This document shows, piece after piece, positions 8,415-53,163 of a DNA stretch of 64,000 nucleotides (the stretch's first letter is position 1; every line of letters begins with the position of its first letter). The translations under genes were made by a program, and so were the position numbers. The notes below the pieces were generated by a model that saw only the letters and a list, made by a program, of their open reading frames with translations, was not told the origin of the DNA and did no database searches. The stretch is from the IMG/VR virus record IMGVR_UViG_3300030032_000362, one strand, 5' to 3'. The stretch comes from a virus. Taxonomy: Duplodnaviria > Heunggongvirae > Uroviricota > Caudoviricetes.

Positions 8415-9344
8415 CTAATTATCCTTTGTTACAATAGAATTTGCGCCCTGAACCGTAATCCAACCATGAGATTTTCTAGCCTGTGCCAGCTCATAATCAA
8501 TCAGTTCTTTTGTCAAACTGTTAGAAATCTTTTTGTTCGCATTTGCTTCTGCATTGGACGAAATTTCCTTTGCTTTGGCATCTGCTTCTGCCTGCCGCTG
8601 CTTTACTTTGGCATCTGCTTCTGCTTTTTCAACAGATTTTTTGTTGTTAATCTGCTGCGTCTCGTATTCAATCTGCGCCTGCTGCTTTTTCGAAATGCGT
8701 TTATCATATTCTTTGTCAAATCCAATCTGGCTGATAACTACTTTGTTAATCTTAATTGTGTTTTCGCCGTATTTCCCATCAATAGACTCCTGCAATACTT
8801 TTAAAGTTTTTGGCTCAATCACGCTTCGATTTGTTACATCAACTGGATTTAATGTTTTAGATGCAGACTTAACAGCAGACGCTACTAACGTTTCCGGAAT
8901 CAAATTATCCGCATTTGTTACATTTGCGTAAATCCATGCAGAACGCTCCGGTAAAATCTGACAAGTTACGGTAATATCCGAAAACTGTACTGTGTTTCGT
9001 TCACTTGTTTCTGATTCAATAAGTGAATCTTCATAATATTTAACATCCTGCTGCTTGTTGTTAATCAATTCAATATGTTGCACAAAAGGCATTTTAAAAT
9101 TCAATCCATTCGATAATGGACGGTTATCAATCTGTCCAAATTTGGACGACACTCCGGTATAACCGGTTGGAATAATGGTAAATGACTGTCCGAGAACAAT
9201 AACTAAAATGCCTAATACAATTAAACTTGCCGGAATTGATTTTTTTACTTCTTCCTCTTCATAAGCTTTGTACATTATGTACCCAATTGAACTAAGTGCA
9301 ATCAGCACTCCAATAATAGTTACTACAATTTCCATTTCATTCAT
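8415..9344 (-). CDS. SPFH/band-7 family membrane protein with C-terminal coiled coil
   Basis: N-terminal TM helix. GYTGVSSKFGQIDNRPLSNGLNFKMPFVQ fits the prohibitin/stomatin core. The C-terminus is K/E/A-rich (AEADAKVKQRQAEADAKAKE). Confidence 0.5.
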   Translation of the reverse strand: MNEMEIVVTIIGVLIALSSIGYIMYKAYEEEEVKKSIPASLIVLGILVIVLGQSFTIIPTGYTGVSSKFGQIDNRPLSNGLNFKMPFVQHIELINNKQQDVKYYEDSLIESETSERNTVQFSDITVTCQILPERSAWIYANVTNADNLIPETLVASAVKSASKTLNPVDVTNRSVIEPKTLKVLQESIDGKYGENTIKINKVVISQIGFDKEYDKRISKKQQAQIEYETQQINNKKSVEKAEADAKVKQRQAEADAKAKEISSNAEANANKKISNSLTKELIDYELAQARKSHGWITVQGANSIVTKDN

Positions 9345-17036: not shown

Positions 17037-20000
17037 TCATTTCTTCACTTTCATTGTTTTCACAAATCCGGTCTTTTTCTTCTGAATCAGCTTTTTGTAC
17101 TTCTTCAACTGTTTCTTTGGCACCTTGAATGTAGCTTTCTTATAAATTCCTTTGAAAGCATTCTTTCCGATGCTCTTCAGCTTTGCTGCCTTAATAGTTA
17201 CTTTCTTCAGCTTCTTGCAGCCTTTGAAAGCATTTTTCGCAATCGAAGTTACGGTATACGTCTTTTTGCCAATCTTTACTTTATTCAAGATGGTAACGCT
17301 TTTCACTTTCTTCGATGTGCATTTCTTGACAACCGCATACTTTCCGGAAATAGCATATACCACTTTTCCTTTCGTTGCAGAAGTTACGGTTACTGCTTTT
17401 GGCTGCGCAGGTATAGGTTTTACGTTTGGCTGCGTAGGCATAGGCTTTACGTTTGGCTGCGGAACTGTTGGCTCTACATAATCATCATCAGACAACACCG
17501 GAACAGGATAGTCTGTTTCAATTTTATGATGTTCGTCTGTGACCGATTTTGCGCCCTTTAAAAAGTAATCATATCGAATCGGTTCTGTGTCATCCCATGT
17601 TGCATCTAGCAAATACCATTTTCCGTCAACCTGAATCTCATTCCACATATGGTCTACGCTGGACACGTTAATGCAAGGAATTTCATAATAATCGCATAAA
17701 ACTTTTATCATTTTTGCGTAAGATACGCAACATCCTTCTCCGTGTGTCATCATATAACCAATAGAACGAGTTTCATCCGTGCATACAGCGCCTAAAATAT
17801 TGGTTGAATTTCGATAACTATATGTGTTTACTACATAATCATGAATTAATTGTACTTTCCCTTTGATTGATGCTTGCTGAATTCCGGATTTGTCTAATGA
17901 TGAAATAATTCCATTAAAAAATCCTTTATATTCAAGAGCGTCTGCCTTAAAAGCAGTTTCATTATAAGCAGCTAAAGGCAAAACACCACTGGCATATCTT
18001 CCATCTACTTCTTTTACTCCGGAACCGTAAAAATAGAAAATCCAAAATATGGATGGATTATCCAAATATACGGCATAACTTGCATGCATCACATTTTTAT
18101 TTGTGATTTTATCAGTAGCGTAAAACATAATTTTTTTCATTTTACACTCGCCTTTATCCATGTCAAATTTATAATAATTATAAATTGTCGTATAGATTTT
18201 CTTCTCAACATCTGTGAGCTGGTTGTAATACCATTGATTGCTTTCCATCGGCTTTTCAGCATAAGGAATTTCTGTTTCAGTCCCATCAAGAGCCATTATT
18301 TGATTCGTTGGTCGTATCGTGTTGTTTGGATTCCACAAAGCCTTTAAATGGTAATCTGTAGCATTTTGAGGATTAATAATATCAACATAACCGTTTAGCT
18401 CCTCGCAGTACCATCCGGCAAAGGAATAGCCCTCTTTTGTCATGTATCTTGGTAAATCAATCGGGTCATCCTTATACTTATACTCTTTCGGGATTTCTGT
18501 TCCCTTCGGAAGAGTACCTCCATTTAAGTCAACAGAAATACGATAGGTTGTTCCTTCATATACCGCTTCCAAGGTCAAAGGACCGGAGGTATCTGCATCA
18601 ATTTTAGTAATAATCTTGTTGTTCAAGGTATTACGCCATCCGCAGACATAAAATCCCTTTCTCTTTACATTGGTCGGCAGGTCAAATTCATCACCGTAGG
18701 AGTAAGTTTTCGGGTATTCTCCAACAAACTCACCGCCAAGAGTATCATAAGTGATGCCGTAAATGCGGTTTGCTGCTTCCACATAGACTTTTAAGTTGTT
18801 CTTCAATGCATAATTGGACGGGAAAGGAATGGTTACGGTCGAATTCTTGTCTTCACAAGTTCCGGCACTTACCTCTGTTCCGTCTGCTGTTTCTACACGG
18901 TAGCTCTGAATATAACGGTTTGTATTGCACTTCATAATCAATGAATTGATTTTTTCGCCATACTCATACGTTACTTCGTTTGTTTTGTCCAGCTCACGGT
19001 CGCCAAGAAAAGCGGTTGTGTCACTGTACTTTGTACTGAATGTTACCGATGGCTTTTTATACCATGCGGCATAAAGCGTGGTGTCTTTTGCAATATCCCA
19101 CTTATTCTTTCCGGAACTGTAGTTGATTACAGCCGTTTCACGTTCCGTTACCGGAATCGTTTTTGTCCGGTCTGTTACCCATCCGGCAAAGTCATAAAAT
19201 TTGGAATACAGATATGGGAAGTCTTCCCATGCATCATAAGTAAACTCGTACTCTGTTTTCGACTGTGAATTCGTCACAAACGTTACTTTGTACGTGTTTG
19301 GTTTCCAAATAGCATATACAATTACAGTATCTACCTTTCCACTCAAATCGTCTACTACATCTCCATCTTTTGCATACGACCATCCGGTAAAGGAATAGCC
19401 GGTCTTCTCAAAACGGCATGTTGGATTGGCTTTTGTGTCATAGGTTACATCCAAGTCATCCATACTGCCGGAAGTGGCACCGTTCCCATCGAATACTACT
19501 TTGTGGGTTCTTGCCGTCCAATGTGCATAGAGCGTGTGGTTTTCCGCGCGGGTCATCTGTGTATCTTCCGTTACTTTTGTTCCACCTTTTTTTGCCGTGT
19601 ACCATCCGTCAAAGGTGTAACCGTATCGGGATGCCGTTGTTAAGGAATAATCCTTATCGAACGTGTTTGGCAATTCAGCGTCTTTCACTTCTCCTCCGTT
19701 AGCATCAAAAGATACTGTATAGGTGATTGGTTCCAGAATTGCCTTGAAAATAGAGTTGCAATCTACCGTCATGGTAGTTTCCGGTTCTAATTTCTCCGGC
19801 TCTCCTACTGCTTCTCCGTCTGCATTCATTGAATACTTTTCCCAACGAATCAGCTTATACCCTACGCTCGGATAAAAGTTTTCCGGCAGATTTGGTGAAA
19901 AAACTTCCTGATAGGAATGTTCTTCGTTCTGCACGTTGGTATTCTGATTGTTTCGGAAAGAAATCTGATAGACTTCCGGTGTCCATTTGGCATAGACATC

Positions 20001-20975
20001 TGTTCCATCCGGAACTTTCAATAAAACGCCGTCTTTGTCGAAAATCTGAGTGTTTTTCTCAAAATATCCTTCAAATACATAGTGGTCTTTCTTTGGTGGG
20101 TAGATGTTGCCGAAACTACGGCTTTTCTCATCCTCTTTACCCTCAAACACATATACCGAGTCATATTTCAGACCACTGCCCCCGCGGTTTACTTCACCGC
20201 CATCCGGAGCATCTGCATGAAGCGTAACTTCTTTTGCGGCCGCACCAATGTAAGGGAACTTGTCCGGGTCTTTTAAGATGGCCGGGATATTGGTTTTGTA
20301 CTTCGTTTTGTAAACAGTTTTTAATGTGTTTTCCGGAGTAGTTACTGGTCCGCGGAATACGAAACCGCTAGACGTATTATCTGTTCCGTCCAATGTAATA
20401 TTTGGAGAGTTGCAATAGACAAGATTTTGGTTAAAGCAGTTTTGTCCAATTTTTTCTAAAGAATCTGGCAAATAAATAGTTACATCTCCTCTATATCCTT
20501 CATCCTTGCTTCCATAACCATCCTGACTAAACGCCCAATCATTAACCGTTTTCAGCCCCGTACAAGCCGTGGCGTCAACGACAATGCCTGAACTGGTGAC
20601 GTTGAAGGAGCCGAGAAAAAACGAATCCTTGTTTTTCGCGTCTGCATCTCCTAATGATTCCACCTTGTGATAGGCGATGATTTTTCCATCTTCATTACAT
20701 TCCGGTACTTTATCCGGAATAATGATGTCTTTGGTGATTTTTTTTGAGAATTTTCCGTCCTGATATACTCCAATTATATGAACATTACGAGCTGCGCTGC
20801 TTTCATCGCCCGATACTGCATCATATTCCCAGATAATATCTCCCTGTTCTGTCCCTGCGTACCCACTCACCGCATTCTGTTTTCCCTCTTTAATATAACA
20901 AGAACCGACTAACAGGCCGGCAACAAACAATGTGCAGATAGCAAAGGATATAATATTTCTTTTTCTTGCTTTCAT
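17037..20975 (-). CDS. Giant secreted surface protein (1312 aa) with Listeria-Bacteroides repeats, a transglutaminase-like domain, a Pro-rich linker and a Lys-rich LRR-like C-terminal tail
   Basis: Signal peptide MKARKRNIISFAICTLFVAGLLVGSCY. Several GY-F-GW...LYA-W repeats. Cys-His-Asp core THGEGCCVSYAKMIKVLCDYYEIPCINVSSVDHMWNEIQVDGKWYLLDAT. Linker PTVPQPNVKPMPTQPNVKPIPAQP. The last roughly 110 aa are about 65% identical to the tail of the 1896-aa protein. Confidence 0.75.
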   Translation of the reverse strand: MKARKRNIISFAICTLFVAGLLVGSCYIKEGKQNAVSGYAGTEQGDIIWEYDAVSGDESSAARNVHIIGVYQDGKFSKKITKDIIIPDKVPECNEDGKIIAYHKVESLGDADAKNKDSFFLGSFNVTSSGIVVDATACTGLKTVNDWAFSQDGYGSKDEGYRGDVTIYLPDSLEKIGQNCFNQNLVYCNSPNITLDGTDNTSSGFVFRGPVTTPENTLKTVYKTKYKTNIPAILKDPDKFPYIGAAAKEVTLHADAPDGGEVNRGGSGLKYDSVYVFEGKEDEKSRSFGNIYPPKKDHYVFEGYFEKNTQIFDKDGVLLKVPDGTDVYAKWTPEVYQISFRNNQNTNVQNEEHSYQEVFSPNLPENFYPSVGYKLIRWEKYSMNADGEAVGEPEKLEPETTMTVDCNSIFKAILEPITYTVSFDANGGEVKDAELPNTFDKDYSLTTASRYGYTFDGWYTAKKGGTKVTEDTQMTRAENHTLYAHWTARTHKVVFDGNGATSGSMDDLDVTYDTKANPTCRFEKTGYSFTGWSYAKDGDVVDDLSGKVDTVIVYAIWKPNTYKVTFVTNSQSKTEYEFTYDAWEDFPYLYSKFYDFAGWVTDRTKTIPVTERETAVINYSSGKNKWDIAKDTTLYAAWYKKPSVTFSTKYSDTTAFLGDRELDKTNEVTYEYGEKINSLIMKCNTNRYIQSYRVETADGTEVSAGTCEDKNSTVTIPFPSNYALKNNLKVYVEAANRIYGITYDTLGGEFVGEYPKTYSYGDEFDLPTNVKRKGFYVCGWRNTLNNKIITKIDADTSGPLTLEAVYEGTTYRISVDLNGGTLPKGTEIPKEYKYKDDPIDLPRYMTKEGYSFAGWYCEELNGYVDIINPQNATDYHLKALWNPNNTIRPTNQIMALDGTETEIPYAEKPMESNQWYYNQLTDVEKKIYTTIYNYYKFDMDKGECKMKKIMFYATDKITNKNVMHASYAVYLDNPSIFWIFYFYGSGVKEVDGRYASGVLPLAAYNETAFKADALEYKGFFNGIISSLDKSGIQQASIKGKVQLIHDYVVNTYSYRNSTNILGAVCTDETRSIGYMMTHGEGCCVSYAKMIKVLCDYYEIPCINVSSVDHMWNEIQVDGKWYLLDATWDDTEPIRYDYFLKGAKSVTDEHHKIETDYPVPVLSDDDYVEPTVPQPNVKPMPTQPNVKPIPAQPKAVTVTSATKGKVVYAISGKYAVVKKCTSKKVKSVTILNKVKIGKKTYTVTSIAKNAFKGCKKLKKVTIKAAKLKSIGKNAFKGIYKKATFKVPKKQLKKYKKLIQKKKTGFVKTMKVKK

Positions 20976-23603: not shown

Positions 23604-26600
23604 TCATTTTCTGACTTTCATCGTCTTAACGAATCCGGTTTTCTTTGTGAACAGTTTCTTGTATTTCTTCAAATACTTCTTAGGCGCTTTAATCTTAGCC
23701 TTTTTACTGATACCCTTAATCGCGTTCTTTCCAATCTTTTTCAAGGAAACACTCTTAACGGTAATCGTTTTCAGTTTCTTGCAGCCCTTAAAGGCGTTTT
23801 TAGCGATTGCGGTTACTTTGTACTTTTTGCCGTTAATAGTTACTGTTTTCTGAATTGTTACCTTTTTCAGCTTTTTACTTGTAACCTTTTTAACGAAAGC
23901 ACTTTTACCGCTAACCTGGTATACTACCTTGCCTTTTGTTACCGTCTTAGCTTTTGTAGCAATCGTTTTTGATGGATTAAGCGATGGCGTCTGAATCGGT
24001 GATGGGTCTGAGCTCGGGCTAGGTGTTGGGTTTGGTTCCGGTCTAGGTGTTGGATTTGGCACCGGACTAGGAACAACAGGGTCAACAACATTACCCTTTG
24101 TTTTCCATACAGCATATACATCTGCGCCATTCACGCCCATAGTAACCTCTGTTACAATATCGCCATCTGTACCATCAGGCTCTTCCGCCCAACCAACGAA
24201 AGTATAACCAACACGTTCCGGCATTCGCATATTCAACACTGCTTTAGAACCCCAAATAAAGGTATCTTCGCTTTCCGTAAAGTCCGGTGCTCCTGCATAA
24301 TTCTGATGGAATCTTACTTTACCGTAGTCGCGGTCTAAGATAATCGTAAATGCAGCACCATCTTCTACTTTGTGTTTCAAAACAGAATCCGGATTTACAT
24401 GATAACCGTCCGGTACATGGAAGTCATAATTTGCTTCCAGTTTGAGGTCAGTGCCCTGTACAGCAGAGCCGGTAGCAACCGTTACTTCATATGTTTCGTC
24501 TGCTTTTTGAGTCTTTGTGGTGATTGTGTAACTTGTATCACCGGCAGTACCCCATACAGCATATAAAGTAATGCTTTCCTCTAAATCCGAAATCACATCA
24601 CCGGCTTTGTATTCCGGTTCTGTTGCCCCCTGAATGGTGGACCAACCAAGGAATACTCTTCCATCACGAGTTGTCTCGAATCCCGGCAAAGTAATTGTAT
24701 GACCCTCATAAACTGTCAACGTAGTAGCATCTGTTGTTCCACCATTGCCATTAAAAGCAATTTGATTTCCCTTTTGGTCATCGTCAACAGCCCAGATTGC
24801 ATACAAGTGAATCGTTTCTCCGGCAGATGCCAGATTGGTCGCTTTGTATTTATCATAATACTCAGCATTTGTTGCTTTTGCATCGCGGTTCCATCCAAGG
24901 AATTTGTAACCGGTACGTGTGAACGCGTTGGCGCTTAACTCCTGCTTAATATCAGAAGATAAAGTCTGTACATCCATCGTTCCGTTACCACCGTTTGCAT
25001 GATATGTGATAAAGTAATTTGCCGGTTTCCAAACAGCATACAAAGTTACTGTCTGATTCTTGCCCGCAAGGTCTTTTACGGTATCTTTGTCCGTATACAT
25101 TGCTTTCGTAGCATTTCTGTCGGTAGACCAACCGAGGAACTGATAACCTTTTCGGCCAAAAGCATTTTTCGTCAAATTGACGTTTGCTTTTGTATCAAAG
25201 GCATCTGCTTTCATAACGCCTTCTGTTGCTCCGTTGCCATTATAAGCAACTGTATACTGGTCATGTTTCCAAACAGCATACAAAGTAAGATTCATGGTTC
25301 CGTCCCATATTTTTGTAGACTTTCCGTTTTCGTCAAAGTATTGAACTCCGCCATTTTCGGAACTGAAATATCCTACAAAACTATAATCTTCTTTTTCCGG
25401 AATTACAATCGGAGGAATCGGTTTGCCGTTTACAACGTAAACTTTTTCATCTCCGTTAATACCGCCCATTGTGTTCAATTGAACAACATAAGCCGGTTTT
25501 CCGTAAGAAGTACAGGACTTATTCAAGTACGTCTGCGAATAAATATCCGCTGTAGAGTTGGTGTATCCTTTGATTTCTGCTTCATTCGGAACTAATGGAC
25601 CGGCCGGGAATTTACAATTTGGATTTTCTACACCCAAAACGTTAAGCATAGAATCTGCAAAAGCATTTTCCCCAAAGCTGATTAAGCTATCGCCGGTTGT
25701 GAACTCAGTAAGAGCGGTTCCGGCAAAAGCATTTTCACCAATTGTTTCAAACTGGTCCGTATCTTTTAAGGTTGTAAGAGAACTACAACCGTTAAATGCA
25801 TTGTTCGGGACATTCATTACTCCGCCAAAGGAAACACTGACTAAGCTTTCCGCTTCTTCAAATGCTCCTTCGCCCAATGTAATCCCCGTCTTTGGCAATT
25901 CAATTGCGGTAAGTCCAGAATTTGCAAATGCGCTTTCTCCGATTTCAGCCAAAATAGCTTCTTCATCGAACGAAATTGTTGTTAAATTCTTGCAGCCTTT
26001 AAAAGCGCCTGCATTGATTTTCTTTAACAACGGTCCAACGGTTACTTCAACAAGATGAGCCGGAGAATCCTGTACATAAGAATACTCTTCTGTCTTGTCT
26101 TTTTCATACCCAACCATAAGAGAAATCGGATATTCATGTGCCATAGCGAAGTCGTATGCTTTACTCTTGTAATAGCATTTAACAACTGTGCTGTTCGGGA
26201 ACACGGCGCTGATTTCATCATAAGTAAGGTTTGTACTCATTCCTTCAAAAGTTACTTCATTGAGAGTGAAACATCCATTAAATGCTCCTTTTCCAACTAA
26301 GACAACAGATTCCGGAATGGAAACTTCCGTTACGTTTGCCTTTGCAAAAGCAAATGCTCCAATATTAGATAAAACACTTTGGTCTTCAAATTCAATGGTC
26401 TCTAAAGCGGCAATACTGGAGAAAGCACGTTCTCCGATTGACTGTACTGTATTTGGAATTTCCAACTCAGCAATCTTTGTGTTATTGAATGCATAAGAAC
26501 CAATTGTCTGAACACGGCCCAGTGTAATATCTTTTAAGTTTACGCAGCTATCAAAAGCATTGTTTCCAATACTTGTGATATTAACCGGAATATCAAACGA

Positions 26601-29294
26601 TTCCATAGTTACTTCATCTTTGAAGAAATCATCCGGAATCGTTGTGAGAATTTCATAAGATTCACGGTTTGCGTTCTGGCAATAGCTTGCCACGCTTGAC
26701 CCCTGAAATCCAACCAATTTCTCTGTTGTATTCGGAATGGAATCTTTCTCCAAAGTAGTTCCCGGATTTTTCACCGTTACAGAATGTAAGTTTGTGTCAG
26801 CGAAAGCGTTTTTCTCAACCGTTTCTACCGAATACGGAATTGCTACATTTTTAACTGTGCAGCCGGCAAAAGCATTTGCCTGAATTGTTTCGCATACTTT
26901 GCTGATTTCCGGATTATCACTGTGCTTTTTCGGGCAGTAAACCAAAATGGATTTATCTTTATTGTAAAGCAATCCACCTTCTGATGCATAATCAGCATCT
27001 TTTGAGTTTACCGTAATGGATTCCAAGTTTGCAAATTTACTAAAATTCATGTCCGCAATATTATCTACATCAACGGCAAATGCAATTTTTTTAGCGTTTG
27101 CACATTCTGCATAAATAATAGAGCGAGTATTTTCTGAATTTTTGTAAATTGTTACGGTATCATCCGAAGTGTTGTAATCGTAAATATGAGTATAATTGGC
27201 TACATAATTGCGATTTCCAACAGAACCTTTTGTAATTACGACATCTTTTTCCGGAGTGTCACCGTTGCTGCCGGTCCATCCGTCAAATACATATCCCTGC
27301 TTTGTTGGTGTATTCAGATGAATATCATCATCCTCTACTGTATAATTGCTAACATTTGCAGCAGTTCCACCATTCAAATCATAAATGATTGAATAAGTGT
27401 TTTTGTCATAGACAGCAGACAATGATTTTGTTTCATTGATGGTATATGTTCCATTAAATCCATCCCAAGAAGAGAATGTATAACCTTTCTTTTCCGGAAC
27501 AGGCAAATTAATGGTTGTTCCACCGACTTTTACAATTGAAAAATCAGTTTCATAAATAGCTCCATCATAAGTTACTTTTCCACCATTTGAAGAGAGTTTT
27601 GTTTGATAACAAACAATTTTTTTAGCAGCGGATACATTTCCTGCGCTGTCTTTAGCGAAAAAGTAATAAGTTCCTGCAGCAGAAATTGTTTTATCTACCG
27701 AAAATGATTTTGTGGAAGCCACTTTGGTATAAGCAGAACTTACTGGACTAGCCGAAGTTCCAAAATAATAAGAAGTAACTCCTACATTATCACTAGCCTC
27801 TAACGTCACAGACTGATTTTTGCCCGCCGTAATATTAGAAGTAATACTTCCTTCCGGAGCAGTTTTATCCACAATTGCAAATATTTTTGTAACTGAACCG
27901 GAATAATTTCCTGTACCATTTATTACGGCAACGGCAGTTCCAACATTTGTATTGCTGCTGTAAGATACTGTATAGTCTCGTCCAAGCACCAAGGCCTTTT
28001 TAGTATAAGGATTTTTTGCCGTTACGCTATTGGTGATTGCACTTCCGATGTAAGGAACAGACGAATTCATCAAAGCAACCGAACAATCTGTTATCGGGCA
28101 TTTATCAACCATTAAAGTCCCCTCTATGAGGTTACTGTTTTTGGTTGATTTAATTGCCTTTGTATAATTGCCGGCATCCAAAACATCATCTTTTGTGTAG
28201 CCGGATAAGCCACTACCCATTGCATACCGTAAAGACTGATTTGCATTTGGCGCAACGAAATAATATCCTTTAGATGTTTGTTTCGTGTAATTGTAGCCAA
28301 CAAACCCACTTTCTGTCATAGCAGAATCAAGAGCGTCTGAAACAGTCTGTCCATAAGTAATAGATGATGCAATTGACTGATAATCACCATTTGCCTTCTT
28401 GTAAGATACATTTTTGGTAGTATCTAATGCTGCCTTGTAAATATTTAATGAAGCAGAGTTCGATGCATCAAGATAATTAAGGCAACATCCTGTTTCTGCA
28501 GAAGTATAGATTTTATCTTTTGCTGCGCTGTTTTCTCCATAGACAGTAAGCCATAACTTATCACTTTCGTCACAATCTGAACCCGTCTTATTAAAGGTCT
28601 TGTCATCTAACGAAATACTTGATGCAATGTTTCCAAACAGCAAATAACCATGTAAACTTGTGCAGTTATCAAATGCTGCTTGTAAATCACAAACATCATG
28701 ATTTGCGTCTCCCATTGGACACCAAATATGCTCTAATTTTCCACAATTCTGAAAAATACCTTTTGCATACTCTACCGGCGGAAGACGAAATACTTCAACC
28801 AAATTTACACAATTAGCAAAAGCATATTCCAAAACGCCATCTCCGTCCAATTTCATGCCGGAATTCAGCCCACCAATAACATACTTGATTTTCTTTTTAG
28901 CAGCAGTTGACATGTTAGTCAAACAATTGCCCATAACATAATAACCGGCATCATCCATTTTCGCAGACGGACGGTTATTTTCCATCTTGTAAAAAGCAAA
29001 AACGCCATTTTTATCAATGCCCCAATAGGTAATTAATGCGTTATTCACATAAGAATAACCAGCGGTTCCACTTTCAACAATGGAGTTGACATCAAAAGAG
29101 ACATTCGAAAGATTGCGTTTTTCTGCGCTTTCTTCATATTCGGCAACAGACCCGGTTGCTACACTTTGCACAGCGGCTTTGCTTCGGATTGAACCGATAT
29201 TACCGCTTAAAAGCATTGCTAAAGCCAAAACTCCGGCTACCGAACGTTTAAAGATTTTTCTTTTTCTCATGAAAATAAAATCTCTCCTTTCCAA
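23604..29294 (-). CDS. Giant secreted surface protein (1896 aa) with BspA-type leucine-rich repeats, Listeria-Bacteroides repeats, Ig-like regions, a Pro-rich linker and a Lys-rich LRR-like C-terminal tail
   Basis: Signal peptide (KRSVAGVLALAMLLSGNIGSIRSKAA). Many NAF-GC--L--V-IP-SV--IG--AF units. GY-F-GW...LYAVW repeats. Linker PVVPSPVPNPTPRPEPNPTPSPSSDPSP. The tail KGKVVYQVSGKSAFVKK...GFVKTMKVRK is shared with 17037..20975. Confidence 0.8.
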   Translation of the reverse strand: MERRDFIFMRKRKIFKRSVAGVLALAMLLSGNIGSIRSKAAVQSVATGSVAEYEESAEKRNLSNVSFDVNSIVESGTAGYSYVNNALITYWGIDKNGVFAFYKMENNRPSAKMDDAGYYVMGNCLTNMSTAAKKKIKYVIGGLNSGMKLDGDGVLEYAFANCVNLVEVFRLPPVEYAKGIFQNCGKLEHIWCPMGDANHDVCDLQAAFDNCTSLHGYLLFGNIASSISLDDKTFNKTGSDCDESDKLWLTVYGENSAAKDKIYTSAETGCCLNYLDASNSASLNIYKAALDTTKNVSYKKANGDYQSIASSITYGQTVSDALDSAMTESGFVGYNYTKQTSKGYYFVAPNANQSLRYAMGSGLSGYTKDDVLDAGNYTKAIKSTKNSNLIEGTLMVDKCPITDCSVALMNSSVPYIGSAITNSVTAKNPYTKKALVLGRDYTVSYSSNTNVGTAVAVINGTGNYSGSVTKIFAIVDKTAPEGSITSNITAGKNQSVTLEASDNVGVTSYYFGTSASPVSSAYTKVASTKSFSVDKTISAAGTYYFFAKDSAGNVSAAKKIVCYQTKLSSNGGKVTYDGAIYETDFSIVKVGGTTINLPVPEKKGYTFSSWDGFNGTYTINETKSLSAVYDKNTYSIIYDLNGGTAANVSNYTVEDDDIHLNTPTKQGYVFDGWTGSNGDTPEKDVVITKGSVGNRNYVANYTHIYDYNTSDDTVTIYKNSENTRSIIYAECANAKKIAFAVDVDNIADMNFSKFANLESITVNSKDADYASEGGLLYNKDKSILVYCPKKHSDNPEISKVCETIQANAFAGCTVKNVAIPYSVETVEKNAFADTNLHSVTVKNPGTTLEKDSIPNTTEKLVGFQGSSVASYCQNANRESYEILTTIPDDFFKDEVTMESFDIPVNITSIGNNAFDSCVNLKDITLGRVQTIGSYAFNNTKIAELEIPNTVQSIGERAFSSIAALETIEFEDQSVLSNIGAFAFAKANVTEVSIPESVVLVGKGAFNGCFTLNEVTFEGMSTNLTYDEISAVFPNSTVVKCYYKSKAYDFAMAHEYPISLMVGYEKDKTEEYSYVQDSPAHLVEVTVGPLLKKINAGAFKGCKNLTTISFDEEAILAEIGESAFANSGLTAIELPKTGITLGEGAFEEAESLVSVSFGGVMNVPNNAFNGCSSLTTLKDTDQFETIGENAFAGTALTEFTTGDSLISFGENAFADSMLNVLGVENPNCKFPAGPLVPNEAEIKGYTNSTADIYSQTYLNKSCTSYGKPAYVVQLNTMGGINGDEKVYVVNGKPIPPIVIPEKEDYSFVGYFSSENGGVQYFDENGKSTKIWDGTMNLTLYAVWKHDQYTVAYNGNGATEGVMKADAFDTKANVNLTKNAFGRKGYQFLGWSTDRNATKAMYTDKDTVKDLAGKNQTVTLYAVWKPANYFITYHANGGNGTMDVQTLSSDIKQELSANAFTRTGYKFLGWNRDAKATNAEYYDKYKATNLASAGETIHLYAIWAVDDDQKGNQIAFNGNGGTTDATTLTVYEGHTITLPGFETTRDGRVFLGWSTIQGATEPEYKAGDVISDLEESITLYAVWGTAGDTSYTITTKTQKADETYEVTVATGSAVQGTDLKLEANYDFHVPDGYHVNPDSVLKHKVEDGAAFTIILDRDYGKVRFHQNYAGAPDFTESEDTFIWGSKAVLNMRMPERVGYTFVGWAEEPDGTDGDIVTEVTMGVNGADVYAVWKTKGNVVDPVVPSPVPNPTPRPEPNPTPSPSSDPSPIQTPSLNPSKTIATKAKTVTKGKVVYQVSGKSAFVKKVTSKKLKKVTIQKTVTINGKKYKVTAIAKNAFKGCKKLKTITVKSVSLKKIGKNAIKGISKKAKIKAPKKYLKKYKKLFTKKTGFVKTMKVRK

Positions 29295-30780: not shown

Positions 30781-33069
30781 TTACAGCATAATGTCCCACA
30801 AATTTGCATCCTGTTCCTGCATAGCAATTTTAAGTTTCTCTGATTTTTCTTTTTCTTCTTTTGCTATCTTCTTTTCAGTTTCCGTTTTCGCAACCTTTTC
30901 GTTTTCATGTTCCAATTCCAAACATTCTTTTAATTGCTCCGGATTTCCATTACAGACCTTGTTCAAAATTGACTCAGTTTCATAACTAGGCCCATTAATT
31001 ACTTTTTTCTCATCTCGCGCAATTTCTTTCTTGTAGCGAGCAACCTTATCATCATGTGATTGTTTTTTGTCTATCTTAGAATCAATTACACGTTGACTAT
31101 TATATGGAATTTCATAACGAAGTGCTTTATCAGCGTCCCCAGTTAAATGATATTTTGGATGTTCTGTGTAATTGTATTTTGTTGTATAAAAAGGTTTTTC
31201 TCCTCGAATAAATACAATACAATCATTATCCGCCATTTCACGAATCTGGTTAAAATCTAACAAATCCGTTCCAGTATAATTATAAGACTCGTTTCCTCCG
31301 CCTTTTCCACCAATAGAAGTTCCCTGCTGACGTTTCGTTGTTTTACCAAGCATAGCCTGAATATATTCAATCATGTCTTTTTCCTGACTGCCAAGGAAAA
31401 TCATAGTATCGCAGTTTCCAATAATAGTACTCATATCATCATCCCACATTTTTTTCAACTGACTTTGATTCTGCAAGATAATGGTACACCACATTTTATA
31501 AGAACGCATCGTTGCAATTTTTTCAACAAATCCGGGAATTTTACCAACATTCGCAAATTCGTCCAATAGAAAACGTATATTATATGGTAACGTTCGGTCG
31601 CCGGGAACAATTTTTCCTCCGGCATTGGCTAAAAACCATTCTGCTGCTTTCTTATTAAGGAAGCGTTCAATAAAAATATCTTCTTTACTGACAATTTCAT
31701 AATGATTTTCTTTTTCGACAATCTTTGCGCTCTGAAGCATTTTCTTCTTTGCTTTTACTTCTTCAATCGTTTCACCCCATAAGAAAGTTTCCGTCAATCC
31801 ATTTACTTCCTTTTGTAAAAAATAACTATGAGGATATATATTTTCTACTAAATAATACAAATATTCAAACAACTGCGTATACAAACAAGCAGCAATAAAG
31901 TTAAATGCCTTATCCGCAGTAGGAATAATAATAAACAAAACCTGTTTTTTTCTTCCCAATTCTTCTAAATGCAATTCATCTCTTTTTAATAAACTAGCTA
32001 CATTGCTATAATCAAATGCGCTCAATCGAGTCATTGTTGTAATCAACACAGATTTCAATGTCTTACCGGATGCAATACGAAATTCCTTATAACATTTCGT
32101 TGCCATACTTTCCGGGTTACCGGCTTCTTTATTTGCTTTTTCGTAATTATCAAACAATATATCCAATTCGGATTTCGCAGAGGAATTATTTTCATCCACC
32201 TCTGCCAAACGAATCAATTTCATCGCTGTCGATAAATTACACTCTTCTTTTGGCAGCTTTTCCATCATGTAAAAAGAAATTGCCTGTAATAATACCGTCA
32301 TGGAATCATCCCATATCTGGTCTCCTCCGGAAGTGCCTTCTTTTCGTGTATTTTCTACAATACAATTTACCATAGAGCGAACACCATTTTCATCTCGAAT
32401 ATAAGCATACGGGTTATAGCATAGAGAATCTGACATTTTACTAAGGTTAAAAATTTTAATTTCATAACCGGCATCTTCCAATGGTCCAGCTAAAGCTTCC
32501 GTTAATTCTCCTTTTGGGTCAGTAAATACATAGGAGCTATTCATCTGCAACCCATTTGGCTTAACAAGCGAAAATGATTTGCCAGTACCGGACCCTCCGA
32601 AAACAATCTGATGGCAGTTTCTTCGTGTTTTACTACCATTCATGGACATATACAAATCTTTTGCCAAAATTATATTATCTGCTCCATTTGTTTTAATCGA
32701 ACGAAATGGCGTATTATACTTTTTGTTATATGCCTTCATATCCGTATTCCACTTAGCAGAACCTCCGGCATCCTTATCTGTATCTCTTCTTATTACCATT
32801 AAATACGCATATAACATTATAATACCAAAGATACAAGTCCCAACCATTGGATAAACAAATGAATATGACGTAAATGGCAAAATAGCAAGCGGCTTTTCCT
32901 GTATGTGTTCCATTGCTAATTGCATAATCTTTATCGGATTGTTTTCATACTCCGGTTTGATACAACCCATATGTAAGGTGAATAATAAAAGCAATAAATA
33001 AAGGATTCCTCCGCAAAATATAAACATTTTCCGGATTCCGCGTAATCTTTCTTCCTTATTATTAGGCAT
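30781..33069 (-). CDS. virD4: Type IV coupling protein, VirD4/TraG family
   Basis: 762 aa. N-terminal TM helices. Walker A VFGGSGTGKSF and TDPKGE motif as in TraG/VirD4 T4CPs. Confidence 0.85.
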   Translation of the reverse strand: MPNNKEERLRGIRKMFIFCGGILYLLLLLFTLHMGCIKPEYENNPIKIMQLAMEHIQEKPLAILPFTSYSFVYPMVGTCIFGIIMLYAYLMVIRRDTDKDAGGSAKWNTDMKAYNKKYNTPFRSIKTNGADNIILAKDLYMSMNGSKTRRNCHQIVFGGSGTGKSFSLVKPNGLQMNSSYVFTDPKGELTEALAGPLEDAGYEIKIFNLSKMSDSLCYNPYAYIRDENGVRSMVNCIVENTRKEGTSGGDQIWDDSMTVLLQAISFYMMEKLPKEECNLSTAMKLIRLAEVDENNSSAKSELDILFDNYEKANKEAGNPESMATKCYKEFRIASGKTLKSVLITTMTRLSAFDYSNVASLLKRDELHLEELGRKKQVLFIIIPTADKAFNFIAACLYTQLFEYLYYLVENIYPHSYFLQKEVNGLTETFLWGETIEEVKAKKKMLQSAKIVEKENHYEIVSKEDIFIERFLNKKAAEWFLANAGGKIVPGDRTLPYNIRFLLDEFANVGKIPGFVEKIATMRSYKMWCTIILQNQSQLKKMWDDDMSTIIGNCDTMIFLGSQEKDMIEYIQAMLGKTTKRQQGTSIGGKGGGNESYNYTGTDLLDFNQIREMADNDCIVFIRGEKPFYTTKYNYTEHPKYHLTGDADKALRYEIPYNSQRVIDSKIDKKQSHDDKVARYKKEIARDEKKVINGPSYETESILNKVCNGNPEQLKECLELEHENEKVAKTETEKKIAKEEKEKSEKLKIAMQEQDANLWDIML

Positions 33070-37949: not shown

Positions 37950-38025
37950 GGGCGTTGGCCGGACTCGAACCGGCACCTCTTAATGTATTTCACTAAGCGA
38001 GCTACCAATCGCTCTCCACCGCCAC
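37950..38025 (-). tRNA. tRNA-like element; anticodon arm is aberrant
   Basis: Good D-arm (GAGC-GATTGGTA-GCTC) and T-arm (GCCGG-TTCGAGT-CCGGC). The acceptor has one mismatch and there is an extra nucleotide before the anticodon stem. The loop is GAAATAC (A33). Confidence 0.3.
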
Positions 38026-38219: not shown

Positions 38220-39317
38220 CTATCTTGAAATATCTTCATTTAACTCAGACGATGTTTTTGCGTTTGACTCAGCAGCCTTTAATGTGATTTCATTAGTTTC
38301 TAAATCATATACGCAAGAATCTTTTTCTAATTTCTCATTTGCTTTCGCCTGAATCCGGCTTTCTCTCAGCTGTTCTCTTGATACATCAGACGTTTTCTGC
38401 TCTGCCGTACCAAGCATATCTCCTAAAATACCCATAGAAGCGATGCTTTGGCTTAAATCTGTCGGGATAAAGATTTTTGTAGCCTGTCCATCCGCAACAT
38501 CTTTCATTGCTTCAATGGATTTCAAACGCAGCACGTTGTCATTCATCTGCGAATTAGCCAACATGCGAATACCATCTGCCTCTGCCTCATACACAAGCTT
38601 AATTGACTTGGCCTTGCCTTCTGCCAGTGCAATTGCGGCATCCTTTTCCGCCTCCGCAGCTAACACTTTAGCCTGACGGTCTCCTTCTGCCATTGCCACT
38701 ACAGATTCTTTGTGTGCCTGAGCCTGAAGCAATGTCTCTCTTCGCTCGCGTTCTGCACGCATCTGTTTTGTCATAACTTCTTCGATTTCAGCCGGAGGAA
38801 TAATATTTTTGATTTCTACACGACTGACGCGAATTCCCCAAGCATCTGTTGCTTCATCCAAAATCTTCTGCATTTTAGCGTTAATAACTTCTCTGGACGA
38901 GAGCGTTTCGTCCAATTCCATTTCTCCGATAATGCTTCGGAGTGTTGTTGCCGTCAGATTTCGTAATCCGGAAGATGGGTCTTCTGCACCATATGTAAAT
39001 TTCTTAGGGTCAAAAATAGTTGCATAAACAACCGAATCAATCTGCATCGTTACATTATCTTTTGTGATAACATTCTGCGGCGGATAATCCAAAACCTGCT
39101 CTTTTAAGGTAATATACCGCACTACGTTATCAATAAATGGGACTTTTACATGAAGTCCGGCCTGCCAAGTTGCCTTATATTTTCCTAATCGTTCAATAAT
39201 CCGACAGGAAGATTGAGGAACCACCTGCACATTTTTTGCAATAATACCGATTACAACCAAAACAATAACTGCTAAAATAATCATACCGATACTAATACTT
39301 ACATCCATAATAATCAC
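38220..39317 (-). CDS. SPFH/band-7 (stomatin/QmcA-YqiK-like) membrane protein
   Basis: N-terminal TM helix then QVVPQSSCRIIERLGKYKATWQAGLHVKVPFIDNVVRYITLKEQVLD and the A/E-rich coiled coil QAKVLAAEAEKDAAIALAEGKAKSIKLVYEAEADG. Confidence 0.75.
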   Translation of the reverse strand: MIIMDVSISIGMIILAVIVLVVIGIIAKNVQVVPQSSCRIIERLGKYKATWQAGLHVKVPFIDNVVRYITLKEQVLDYPPQNVITKDNVTMQIDSVVYATIFDPKKFTYGAEDPSSGLRNLTATTLRSIIGEMELDETLSSREVINAKMQKILDEATDAWGIRVSRVEIKNIIPPAEIEEVMTKQMRAERERRETLLQAQAHKESVVAMAEGDRQAKVLAAEAEKDAAIALAEGKAKSIKLVYEAEADGIRMLANSQMNDNVLRLKSIEAMKDVADGQATKIFIPTDLSQSIASMGILGDMLGTAEQKTSDVSREQLRESRIQAKANEKLEKDSCVYDLETNEITLKAAESNAKTSSELNEDISR

Positions 39318-39700: not shown

Positions 39701-39778
39701 TGGTAAAACAACCAAATTATTACAATCTTTATCCATCTAAGATTAAAACGGTCTATTACATCACTATTGTGATGCAAA

Positions 39779-39867
39779 CGCAGACAATAGGATTTGAACC
39801 TATACACCGTTGCCAGTTACTAACGCTTTAGCAAAGCGCCGCCTTACCAATTAGGCTTATATCTGCA
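39779..39867 (-). tRNA. tRNA-Ser(GCT)
   Basis: Acceptor GCAGATA/TGTCTGC. 3-bp D-stem. Anticodon loop TTGCTAA. Long variable arm. T-arm ATAGG-TTCAAAT-CCTAT. Confidence 0.7.
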
Positions 39868-40432
39868 AAAAATAAACATGATTAAGGTTTCCCTTTATCC
39901 ATTATAAACTCAGTCATATTCGGCCACCGTGATGATAAGTCTGAGCGTTCAGGAGCGACCCTTGGCTTCTTACCACTGTCTAAGCACGAGTGGGAATGAT
40001 GCCCACAAATTTCACGGTTCTTTCAGAGAATGTTATATTTTCTATTTGCTCCGCAAAGCAAAAGATAATTTTAATTATAATTCTGCCATACCGCTACTTT
40101 AACGAATTTCTTGTGTTATACCCTGATTTCTCAGGTTTAAGGCAAACTGACTTGTTGAGATTTCCGTTTAGTCCGTGGTCTCTCACACCTCTCACATCAA
40201 CGGATTATTCCCGAACATCGGGCGTCTATTATGTCAGCCACAAGGATTCTGCTTTTGACCTCTTTATAATGATACACCACACAGCGTTGTTGACAGTTTC
40301 TGTCTTCATATCAAGAATCACTTCTTAATAAAAGTTGTTAATCAATTCAATATCTCATAATTGATTCAACTCATTACCATGCGTCTCAGCAGGATTGAAA
40401 ACTCCTTCTTCACTGAGGTAATCATGTTTAAA

Positions 40433-40503
40433 TGACGGCTGCGGGACTCGAACCCACACTTATAGGATGAAAACCTATTGTCTTACCTTTTGACTAAGCC
40501 GCC
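40433..40503 (-). tRNA. tRNA-Glu(TTC)
   Basis: Acceptor GGCGGCT/AGCCGTC. Anticodon stem ATAGG/CCTAT with loop TTTTCAT. T-arm GTGGG-TTCGAGT-CCCGC. 71 nt. Confidence 0.75.
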
Positions 40504-40774
40504 ATTCCCCTCTCTCGCAAAAAGAGAGGAGGCCAACCCAAAAAATAAAGAAAACCATAACATCTTTGAAACTCCCCGACTTGCTTTTTGCAAGTTCTCA
40601 TAACTACTAAAGATGTCTATAACTGCCAGCAAAAACCTGGTCGCAATATCTTTGTTTTGCTCTCTACAGTTACAGTTTTTTGCCAAGACCCAACCTGCGA
40701 CTGGTTAAGCCATTTTGGCTTCAGGAAGTTTGTCCTATGCGTTCCTATCCTCCCTCGCTAGAGAAAGTGAAACG

Positions 40775-40903
40775 CAAATCTGACGGTAAGGATTCGAACC
40801 TTACAAATTCGGGCAGTTCATGAAGAAAGTTTCAAATGGGAAAAAAACAAACTCTTGCAACTTATTCTTCTCGCCCGATGCATTTCCATAAATGCTAACG
40901 TCA
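40775..40903 (-). tRNA. tRNA-like gene whose anticodon stem is interrupted by about 60 nt (intron-like insertion or disrupted tRNA)
   Basis: 5' acceptor CTGACGT, D-arm GCAT-TTATGGAA-ATGC, 5' anticodon stem TCGGG; then about 60 nt; then CCCGA, ATTTG, T-arm TAAGG-TTCGAAT-CCTTA, and 3' acceptor CCGTCAG-A. Confidence 0.3.
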
Positions 40904-40950
40904 GAGCCAAGGTTCACATATGTCAAAATTTTGTCCATTATCATGGACAG

Positions 40951-41022
40951 CAGCGGTAGCAGGATTCGAACCTGCGAATACAGGAGTCAAAGTCCTGTGC
41001 CTTACCACTTGGCGATACCGCT
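40951..41022 (-). tRNA. tRNA-Gln(TTG)
   Basis: Acceptor AGCGGTA/TACCGCT. D-arm GCC-AAGTGGTAA-GGC. Anticodon loop CTTTGAC. T-arm GCAGG-TTCGAAT-CCTGC. Confidence 0.75.
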
Positions 41023-41229: not shown

Positions 41230-41325
41230 TTTTGCCCGAAGCGTTTGCGGTTATCACTCCGGACTTTGGGGGATTTTCTATAAATTCGATACATACGAAA
41301 AAGGTTTTCCGCAAACTTTAAGAAA

Positions 41326-41399
41326 TGGGGAGCGTGGGACTCGAACCCACGACCAACTGTGTATAAGACAGACACTCTAACCAACTGAGTTAGCTCCCT
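41326..41399 (-). tRNA. tRNA-Ile-like with UAU anticodon (reads AUA)
   Basis: D-arm ACTC-AGTTGGTTA-GAGT. Anticodon stem CTGT/ACAG with loop CTTATAC. T-arm GTGGG-TTCGAGT-CCCAC. The acceptor has 6 bp plus one A-C mismatch. Confidence 0.5.
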
Positions 41400-41498
41400 A
41401 TTTTATTGGCTGTGTTCTCCAAAAATGTGTTCTCCGCTATGTGCCCTCCTTTAATGTGTTCTCCATGTAAGAATGTTTTTTTAATCATCCTTACACTA

Positions 41499-52680: not shown

Positions 52681-53163
52681 TTATGAAAAAATATTTGGTT
52701 CGTGTTCTCTCATTGAAAAATATGGATGTGAATTATCTCCAATCACAATATGGTCTTCTAACTTAATATCCATAACTTTCCCGGCTTCAATAAGTCGATT
52801 GGTTATTTCATAATCAGCATTGGACGGAATTGGATTACCGCTTGGATGATTATGTACGATTACAAAATGATTTCCTCCGGATAGTAATAATCTGGTAAAA
52901 ATTTCCTGTATCCCGATTAAAGATTGGTTTATTTTCCCATGGCTTACTTCAAATATCCCCTTTGGTTTTAATTTAGTGTTCATGGAGATAAGCCATGCTC
53001 GTTCTTCCGCGAGCCGGTCCGCATGAAAAACTTCGCTCATCATTTTATAGATACTCTCTGGGTCCGGATGCATTACAACATAATCACACATGAACTCCTT
53101 TACAAGCATTGGTTTTCTCTCTTCATCCAATTCTAAGTTATACGAAATAATTTTCATGTTCAT
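52681..53163 (-). CDS. radC: RadC-like JAB/MPN-domain protein (DUF2466)
   Basis: The HNHPSGNPIPSNADYEITNRL motif (HNHPSG...PS--D) is diagnostic of RadC-type JAB domains. Confidence 0.7.
   Translation of the reverse strand: MNMKIISYNLELDEERKPMLVKEFMCDYVVMHPDPESIYKMMSEVFHADRLAEERAWLISMNTKLKPKGIFEVSHGKINQSLIGIQEIFTRLLLSGGNHFVIVHNHPSGNPIPSNADYEITNRLIEAGKVMDIKLEDHIVIGDNSHPYFSMREHEPNIFS

Follow-up and report, generated by a model that had tools for sequence, protein, structure and literature searches.

The 64,000-nucleotide stretch of DNA analysed here (the window; IMG/VR record IMGVR_UViG_3300030032_000362) carries on its minus strand a co-oriented array composed of tRNA-Ile(UAU), tRNA-Asn, tRNA-Gln, a tRNA-like gene, a 273-nt spacer, tRNA-Glu, the ROOL RNA and tRNA-Ser, followed by a gene for an SPFH protein, tRNA-Ile(AAU) and tRNA-Gly. 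The subject of this study is the tRNA-like gene. A preliminary description had placed it at 40775–40903; the feature exists, but these ends were off by 2–3 nt, the first acceptor base being 40905 and the discriminator 40778 on the minus strand. Positions within the gene are given as p = 40906 minus the coordinate. We propose that the locus is a tRNA-derived gene for a noncoding RNA held in a tRNA frame, which would be cut out by RNase P and RNase Z; we see about an even chance that this is so.

The reverse complement of 40778–40905 reads UCUGACG-UUA-GCAUUU-AUGG-AAAUGC-A-UCGGGC-[58 nt]-GCCCGA-AUUU-GUAAGG-UUCGAAU-CCUUAC-CGUCAGA-U. The acceptor stem is 7 bp long, G18 G19 are present in the D arm, and a T stem of 5 bp carries a T loop of the UUCRANY type; the helix UCGGGC/GCCCGA, at the place of the anticodon stem, closes with 6 bp around 58 nt. 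The distance between TCGGG and CCCGA, given earlier as about 60 nt, is exactly 60 nt (p33–92), and one further pair leaves 58 nt enclosed. All four arms do pair, as had been described, but not flawlessly: a U·C mismatch or an extra nucleotide is found at the acceptor/T junction. Two readings of the frame are possible. In the canonical 7/5 reading, which starts from C40904, the gene has U8, A9, G18 G19, the T loop UUCGAAU and a discriminator A, with one mismatch (U7·C66) at the base of the acceptor; in the reading that starts at U40905, one extra nucleotide is present on each side of the acceptor/T junction. At the level of the sequence, the acceptor/T-arm half and the elbow are intact and the 3′ trailer is of the type seen in the array: none of the seven array tRNAs encodes CCA and all of their trailers begin with U, and this is likewise true of the tRNA-like gene. 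In Firmicutes, a missing CCA together with a U-first trailer characterises tRNAs that are matured by RNase Z and CCA addition. A reading frame of 6 codons (AUG AAC UGC CCG AAU UUG UAA) in the 3′ part was taken as a chance occurrence.

The gene is unseen by ARAGORN under default settings, and the Rfam tRNA model RF00005 did not match it at the gathering score, nor at E ≤ 10 on 143 nt. With introns allowed and the score threshold at its default, ARAGORN reported the gene as its sole such call in the 64 kb; no intron-mode call was obtained in 40 dinucleotide-preserving shuffles of the 64 kb. The minimum free energy (MFE) fold of the 131-nt RNA is a cloverleaf with one long arm (z = −4.15), and none of 200 shuffles equalled it. 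When the insert was deleted in silico, the remaining body passed ARAGORN at the raised threshold −ps110, as do tRNA-Gly, tRNA-Ser and tRNA-Ile(tat) of the array. Because of the single call and the lack of calls in shuffled DNA, the z-score of the fold and the threshold passed by the insert-free body, the frame is a respectable tRNA frame and not a chance match. Since both default ARAGORN and Rfam overlook the gene, such elements are probably undercounted in the tRNA arrays of mobile elements.

The structure of the insert that takes the place of the anticodon loop was derived from six variants of the gene by RNAalifold. The UCGGG/CCCGA stem is lengthened by a C-G and a G·U pair and then continues into an irregular hairpin, which comprises, from base to tip, an internal loop of 1 nt versus 6 nt (A / AUGAAC), the helix GAAGAA/UUCUUC, a 2-nt bulge, the helix AGUU/AACU and a tip that is poorly defined in the consensus. 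The whole long arm is an irregular hairpin of about 23 bp. On its 3′ side the internal loop AUGAAC(U), 6–7 nt in length, is asymmetric and conserved; the helices GAAGA(A)/(U)UCUUC and AAGUU/AACUU are invariant, and the substitutions G34A, C49U and G54A keep their pairs. The insert includes the stretch CCCAUUUGAAACUUUCUUCAUGAA, and the run of seven T's noticed earlier in the intervening segment is present as U7 on the minus strand (A7 on the plus strand, 40841–40847). No family, intron or ribozyme of Rfam matched the insert at E ≤ 10, and no further copies of it were found in the window (≤3 mismatches) or in IMG/VR. Thus, the earlier suggestion of a tRNA with a small insertion element is descriptively right as regards an insertion in the anticodon loop, but the insert is neither repeated nor mobile; a mini-insertion resembling a miniature inverted-repeat transposable element or a repetitive extragenic palindrome was rejected on the same finding of one occurrence in the window and none in IMG/VR.

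The tRNA-like gene was found in about 30 human-gut contigs and in one isolate, Clostridium sp. AF37-5 (contig NZ_QUDR01000018), with identical or near-identical DNA on the metagenome contigs, which range from 20 to 350 kb. The last 22 nt of the gene (T loop to acceptor 3′ strand) were used as a search pattern that also permitted a canonical variant free of the insert. The pattern was met in one species among 185,579 GTDB representatives and in six human-gut contigs of the JGI/ENA metagenomes, all of which have the insert; otherwise the search returned two unrelated chance matches. Exact 26–27-mers of the two halves gave no match in IMG/VR. Anchoring on the SPFH protein, in IMG/VR and a large protein collection, yielded loci with different arrays or none and no orthologue of the gene, and the distant homologues (61–67%) of the 118-aa protein encoded upstream have no adjoining array.

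For the comparison of carriers, 24 loci (labelled L with a number) and the window were used, which together contain six distinct gene sequences. The gene and the array are syntenic in every carrier. In the lineages L133, L149 and L153 the whole gene is 97–98% identical to that of the window, a value similar to the 96–100% of the true tRNAs, while the spacer directly upstream of the gene is either replaced (53%) or 84% identical and the spacer sp1 is 84–92% identical. The identity of ROOL falls to 81% in L149, where the gene is still retained. In the lineages L009 and L150 the gene is about 90% identical, with nearly all differences in the tip of the hairpin. Indels and replacements are limited to this tip: GAGUUUGUUUUUUU is swapped for GAAAUCUU in L009, L150, L152, L154 and L155, and a 1-nt indel of the U run occurs in L013 and L016. 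Among the variants there are 12 point substitutions, none of which breaks a pair, versus 2.9–3.4 broken pairs expected from random placement of the same substitution types (P = 0.019 on a 35-pair model fixed beforehand; P = 0.006 on the RNAalifold model). Five of the 12 are pair-preserving transitions (C26U, A97G, G34A, C49U and G54A), three of them in the long arm; C26U (L149) turns a G-C pair of the D stem into G·U, and U28-A97 becomes U·G in L009 and L154. A17G and U18C fall in the D loop. The comparative data appear to reflect purifying selection on pairing over a short time span, and no more.

No choice of junction within the insert yields a canonical anticodon loop, that is, a 7-nt loop with U33 and a purine at position 37, and we infer that ordinary codon reading by the gene product is excluded. 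Processing of the product as a tRNA would be expected, because RNase P and RNase Z both recognise the acceptor/T-arm half, which is intact in the gene. In the proposed scheme the whole array would be transcribed as one precursor, RNase P would cut at 40905/40906 and RNase Z after 40778 or 40779, and addition of CCA would give a stable, L-shaped RNA of about 131 nt. The tRNA body would thus provide processing and stability, and the long arm would be displayed. Candidates for a partner of the arm are a protein, the ROOL cage or a defence or toxin enzyme directed at tRNAs; the ideas of a decoy and of ROOL as partner are speculation. The two cuts would also free the 5′ end of a 273-nt RNA, so that the gene would double as punctuation. 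This 273-nt spacer is 94–98% identical among relatives, on a par with the tRNAs, as compared to 53–85% for sp3 and sp1, and its MFE z-score is −3.2. Among 10 variants of the spacer two compensatory pairs were found: a U-A pair of the first hairpin has changed to C-G, and in the terminal hairpin, which directly adjoins tRNA-Glu, a C-G pair has changed to U-A. No Rfam family matches the spacer, and other ROOL loci lack it. Possibly, the spacer is a new noncoding RNA, a candidate located between processing sites of the tRNA type.

Related arrays were examined in 115 IMG/VR loci, gathered with a conserved segment of ROOL as the anchor. In six contigs, the ROOL 5′ end is directly abutted by a 149-nt gene in which a skipping-rope RNA is nested in a frame derived from tRNA-Arg(ACG). 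The acceptor, D and T arms of these six genes are nearly identical to those of the canonical tRNA-Arg(ACG) of another locus, and a 13-bp helix that leads into the skipping-rope replaces the anticodon loop. The nested RNA scores 63.4 bits with RF02924 (gathering score 36.7) and the whole gene 38.6 bits as a tRNA. A strict pattern found six true skipping-rope matches in IMG/VR, each of them nested in this way; a looser pattern gave noise. The survey that found ROOL (PMC5737381) also yielded skipping-rope, an orphan structured RNA. Other ROOL arrays contain recurrent, conserved families of tRNA-like genes with loops of 15–26 nt at the place of the anticodon loop, for example UCUACCCCUACCCAAG, AAGCGCGCGACAACAAGG and UAAAAAUUCACCUCGUCU. 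One of these families abuts ROOL, and its stem covaries (UUCAU/GUGAA versus UUCGU/ACGAA). Given the skipping-rope chimeras and the families with 15–26-nt loops, the replacement of the anticodon loop by other RNA is therefore a recurring design in ROOL arrays and no one-off accident. In the literature, we found no paper that describes tRNA-like genes with enlarged anticodon arms in arrays of ROOL, phages or plasmids.

Several observations weigh against a functional RNA of the proposed kind. None of the pairs has undergone a compensatory double change and covariation support is nil; the known copies are all 90–100% identical, and their conservation could partly reflect youth. Homologues outside the one element lineage were not detected: a covariance model of the gene, run over 100 ROOL-anchored IMG/VR loci, returned ordinary tRNAs only (≤26 bits), and searches of GenBank phages and PLSDB plasmids with the region and the element (megablast and blastn) gave a tRNA-Gln match only. 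Folded alone, the insert is no better than its shuffles (z = −0.08), and the tip with the U7 run is replaceable. The search for a partner or function came up empty, the predicted duplexes of the insert with ROOL or the 273-nt spacer being no better than those of shuffles.

The narrow distribution, the high identity of the copies, the lack of compensatory changes and of a thermodynamic signal in the insert, the free replacement of the tip, the irregular acceptor/T junction and the failure of the Rfam tRNA model to score the gene would all suit a young tRNA pseudogene. A functional tRNA of the array would then have taken an insertion of about 52–58 nt in its anticodon loop, its arms being intact for lack of time and its transcript having no function of its own. 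We regard this main rival as possible, though not probable. The pairs left unbroken by all 12 substitutions (P about 0.006–0.02) argue against it, as does conservation at the level of the tRNAs next to an abutting upstream spacer that has been replaced and with sp1 at about 84%. The gene is kept in every carrier, including the lineage in which ROOL has diverged to 81%, and a pseudogene would have to be reconciled with the same manner of nesting of a bona fide structured RNA in related arrays. An intact tRNA, parent or twin, sharing the gene's T arm and acceptor, which according to the preliminary description would mark the gene as a dead duplicate, was sought in the window, in AF37-5 and the other GTDB representatives and in the JGI/ENA metagenomes and was not found; a search for the parent tRNA, half by half against 569 predicted tRNAs, gave nothing close. 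The finding would be a minor one if the gene is merely a young pseudogene.

A spliced tRNA is very unlikely. It would require that a segment of about 51 nt is removed, either by an endonuclease and ligase of an unknown kind or by self-cleavage followed by ligation of the RtcB type, to give a decoding tRNA of 72–77 nt with a junction such as GGGCG joined to UGAACUGCCC. The intron mode of ARAGORN indeed models the gene as tRNA-Phe(GAA) with a 51-nt intron in the anticodon loop (45 nt in the variants with a short tip), the GAA is invariant across the variants, and the insert, like many introns, folds back on itself. However, the 5-bp stem UCGGG/CCCGA puts G or A at position 33, and the shifted stem CGGGC/GCCCG yields the sole loop with U33, A/G-U-GAA-C/U-U, in which position 32 is a purine and position 37 a pyrimidine that varies between C and U. 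At 51–58 nt the insert falls short of the size of a group I intron, as had been pointed out, and it lacks a match to Intron_gpI and the other intron and ribozyme families of Rfam at E ≤ 10. The earlier remark on the lack of a bulge-helix-bulge also held: this motif consists of two 3-nt bulges 4 bp apart, and the junction loop in the consensus fold is 1 nt versus 6 nt. A scan of about 45 proteins of the window revealed neither an RNA ligase nor a splicing endonuclease. We know of no bacterial tRNA intron of the 51–58-nt size class. A 2026 survey reports group I introns only (PMC13011429). The novel intron-like arrangement considered in the preliminary description is at variance with these loops, and an insert-free allele was not found among the sequences that share the 3′ end of the gene.

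The 3′ halves of tRNAs are common targets of integration and the host element is mobile, but that the 3′ half served as the core of an attachment site, as had been suggested, and that the split arrangement goes back to an old integration or excision is hardly credible. The 35-nt 3′ half is single in the window (≤3 mismatches), and the complete AF37-5 genome contains the 22-nt T-arm/acceptor pattern a single time. An insert of 58 nt leaves no room for an element. On either side of the gene, which lies in the interior of the array, all carriers have syntenic array sequence, and no integrase lies nearby in the window.

If the tRNA-framed RNA proposed here is made and stable, it would represent a natural case of a tRNA body that serves as a processing and stability frame for another RNA module. 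A wider proposal is that, on conjugative elements and prophages of gut Firmicutes, tRNA frames serve in nature as cassettes for expressing and processing RNA modules other than tRNA. The modules would be the 58-nt hairpin in the window, skipping-rope RNA in relatives and the conserved 15–26-nt loops in other relatives, and the chimeras would be produced along with the ROOL nanocage RNA, whether as cargo or partners of it or as tRNA-shaped decoys for host defences directed at tRNAs. We put this forward tentatively and consider it rather unlikely as a whole; if true, the engineered tRNA scaffold would have a counterpart in nature, and two orphan RNA classes would gain a functional lead. The value of the finding would lie mostly in this wider pattern, in which tRNA frames next to ROOL enclose other RNA modules. 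The gene and the skipping-rope-in-tRNA chimeras would together offer concrete, testable partners for ROOL and skipping-rope, which are conserved RNAs with solved or predicted structures and unknown function. One carrier of the gene, Clostridium sp. AF37-5, is a cultured gut isolate.

ROOL is found on megaplasmids, on chromosomes and in prophages, as a rule close to tRNAs; it assembles into a nanocage made of RNA only, whose function is unknown (PMC5737381, PMC5643018, PMC12286853, PMC12990946). In most of the about 115 loci a tRNA or tRNA-like gene lies directly against the 5′ side of ROOL or overlaps it by a few nt, and the same is often seen on the 3′ side. Because of this arrangement, the ends of ROOL may well be defined by RNase P and RNase Z, as the positions of the genes suggest. 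The features of the window and the related loci are collected in Table 1.

Table 1. Positions of the tRNA-like gene, its parts and its neighbours in the window, and of comparable genes in related ROOL loci (positions preceded by an L number refer to that locus).
Feature	Position	Strand	Basis or remark
Whole tRNA-shaped gene, 128 nt	40778–40905	minus	ARAGORN with introns, cloverleaf MFE fold, six variants
Acceptor 5′ strand UCUGACG, p1–7	40899–40905	minus	pairs with 40779–40785, 7 bp; same in all variants
Connector UUA after acceptor 5′ strand	40896–40898	minus	
D arm, p11–26; stem GCAU(UU)/(AA)AUGC	40880–40895	minus	loop with G19 G20
Anticodon-stem-like helix, 5′ strand UCGGGC, p28–33	40873–40878	minus	pairs with 40809–40814
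58-nt insert, p34–91, irregular hairpin	40815–40872	minus	RNAalifold consensus
Variable tip of hairpin, p48–74	40832–40858	minus	holds U7 run (40841–40847)
Anticodon-stem-like helix, 3′ strand GCCCGA, p92–97	40809–40814	minus	
Variable loop AUUU(G) after GCCCGA	40805–40808	minus	
T arm (G)UAAGG-UUCGAAU-CCUUA(C), p102–120	40786–40804	minus	canonical T loop; same in all variants
Acceptor 3′ strand CGUCAGA and next base U	40778–40785	minus	CCA not encoded; trailer starts UUGCG
273-nt conserved structured spacer, tRNA-like gene to tRNA-Glu	40505–40777	minus	
tRNA-Gln(UUG), upstream neighbour	40950–41022	minus	
tRNA-Glu(UUC)	40432–40504	minus	abuts ROOL 5′ end
ROOL RNA, RF03087	39864–40441	minus	368 bits; directly between tRNA-Glu and tRNA-Ser
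tRNA-Ser	39778–39867	minus	
Conjugative-element protein genes of the window	30781–33069, 3433–5853, 1706–2164, 52681–53163, 17037–20975, 23604–29294		
Skipping-rope-in-tRNA genes	L055 7100–7248, L075 454–602, L111 3995–4143, L116 2326–2474, L276, L277	minus (L055)	
Expanded-loop families	L018–L132, e.g. L032 535–613, L021 9690–9772, L060 878–960 and 1060–1141, L076 6094–6189		

The host element was characterised with Pfam and NCBIfam. Proteins encoded in the window include a coupling protein similar to VirD4 (CD1115 family, 413.8 bits against a cut-off of 250) and an ATPase similar to VirB4 (CD1110 family, 773 bits). Also present are RadC, a HipA-like kinase, two proteins of the IrrE/M78 type, a peptidoglycan hydrolase, a protein with a CdiA-CT RNase A-like domain and two giant surface proteins with leucine-rich/Listeria-Bacteroides repeats; many small unidirectional open reading frames surround the array. 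By its protein content, the window reads as a conjugative element of Clostridia and no clear phage. A PHROG helicase and an endolysin-like protein had pointed to a phage, an identity that was dropped on the Pfam/NCBIfam results. Two SPFH/Band 7 proteins are encoded (8415–9344 and 38220–39317), one of them inside the tRNA array. Unusual tRNAs of the window are Ile(AAU) and Ile(UAU), at 37950–38023 and 41325–41400, and tRNAs with an 8-nt anticodon loop (ARAGORN cccc and ccta) occur in the related loci L082 (5104–5175) and L279 (5129–5200). Two further kinds of tRNA-like gene were seen in the related loci. One, of 109–111 nt, has an 8-bp acceptor, a 5-bp T stem and a long extra arm and is possibly of the tRNA-Sec/allo-tRNA type (L055 7461–7569, minus strand; L111 4546–4656; L116 1816–1924). 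The other, of 105 nt (L279 7921–8025), has an acceptor and T arm, a hairpin in an expanded D loop and, in place of the anticodon arm, a 7-bp stem capped by a 5-nt loop; the SPFH protein of its element is 77% identical.

Assignment of the gene to a number of known RNA classes was considered and rejected. For tRNA-Sec, the bases allow a 13-bp stack and a 6-bp D stem, but the variable loop measures 4–5 nt, a UCA loop is lacking, RF01852 does not match, and the same bases fit a 7/5 arrangement with one U·C mismatch. Against transfer-messenger RNA (tmRNA) stand a U-A pair at position 3:70 and the lack of a match to the tmRNA models of Rfam; the output of ARAGORN at a relaxed threshold was a spurious permuted call over several genes. 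Skipping-rope (RF02924) has no match in the window at E ≤ 10. YrlA (RF02553) does not match the gene, whose acceptor stem is open. A tRNA gene with a group I intron would contain an intron of >200 nt with a P3–P9 core, which is lacking.

A close counterpart of the gene is the skipping-rope-in-tRNA-Arg gene: in both, the module sits at the anticodon loop and prolongs the anticodon stem with its basal helix, none of the acceptor, D and T arms is disrupted, and the gene belongs to a tRNA/ROOL array on a mobile element of Firmicutes. The skipping-rope module is known, widespread and significant in Rfam, whereas the 58-nt insert of the window is a simple irregular hairpin that belongs to no family; the skipping-rope scaffold abuts ROOL and scores as a tRNA, whereas the gene of the window lies 337 nt upstream of ROOL and is unscored. 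In the engineered tRNA scaffolds of Ponchon and Dardel, the RNA of interest reportedly replaces the anticodon loop or stem, and the tRNA body is said to confer RNase P and 3′-end processing and resistance to nucleases. Those scaffolds are a laboratory design, whereas the gene of the window would be a natural one, with predicted stability and processing. In tmRNA, too, a tRNA-like acceptor/T-arm domain is combined with a large insertion in place of the anticodon arm; however, tmRNA is about 360 nt long and has pseudoknots, a reading frame for the tag and G3·U70, whereas the RNA of the window measures 128 nt, has U-A at 3:70 and lacks pseudoknots. YrlA resembles the gene of the window as a non-decoding RNA with a tRNA-like module and a long helix at the anticodon position. 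The ends of YrlA lie in the long helix and its acceptor is closed, which amounts to a permuted topology. Such a permutation is not present in the gene of the window, and no Rsr gene was seen in the window.

As for a role in punctuation, mascRNA and the tRNA-miRNA units of gammaherpesviruses are tRNA-like signals for processing. Likewise, the t-elements of plant mitochondria (PMC1920247) are non-decoding tRNA-like structures that recruit RNase P and RNase Z to set the ends of neighbouring RNAs, as we propose for the gene of the window. The t-elements, mascRNA and the tRNA-miRNA units are eukaryotic or organellar, and in the window the flanking 273-nt RNA and the ends are predicted. The tRNA genes of Patescibacteria interrupted by group I introns (PMC13011429) share with the gene of the window an interruption in the anticodon loop and the fact that standard tools miss them, but their introns are longer than 200 nt, have a catalytic core and restore a canonical loop on splicing, none of which applies to the 51–58-nt insert. 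The GOLLD RNAs (PMC12286853, PMC12990946) are likewise fusions of a tRNA with a structured RNA other than tRNA in the tRNA arrays of phages and plasmids; there the nesting is reversed, the tRNA lying inside the large RNA.

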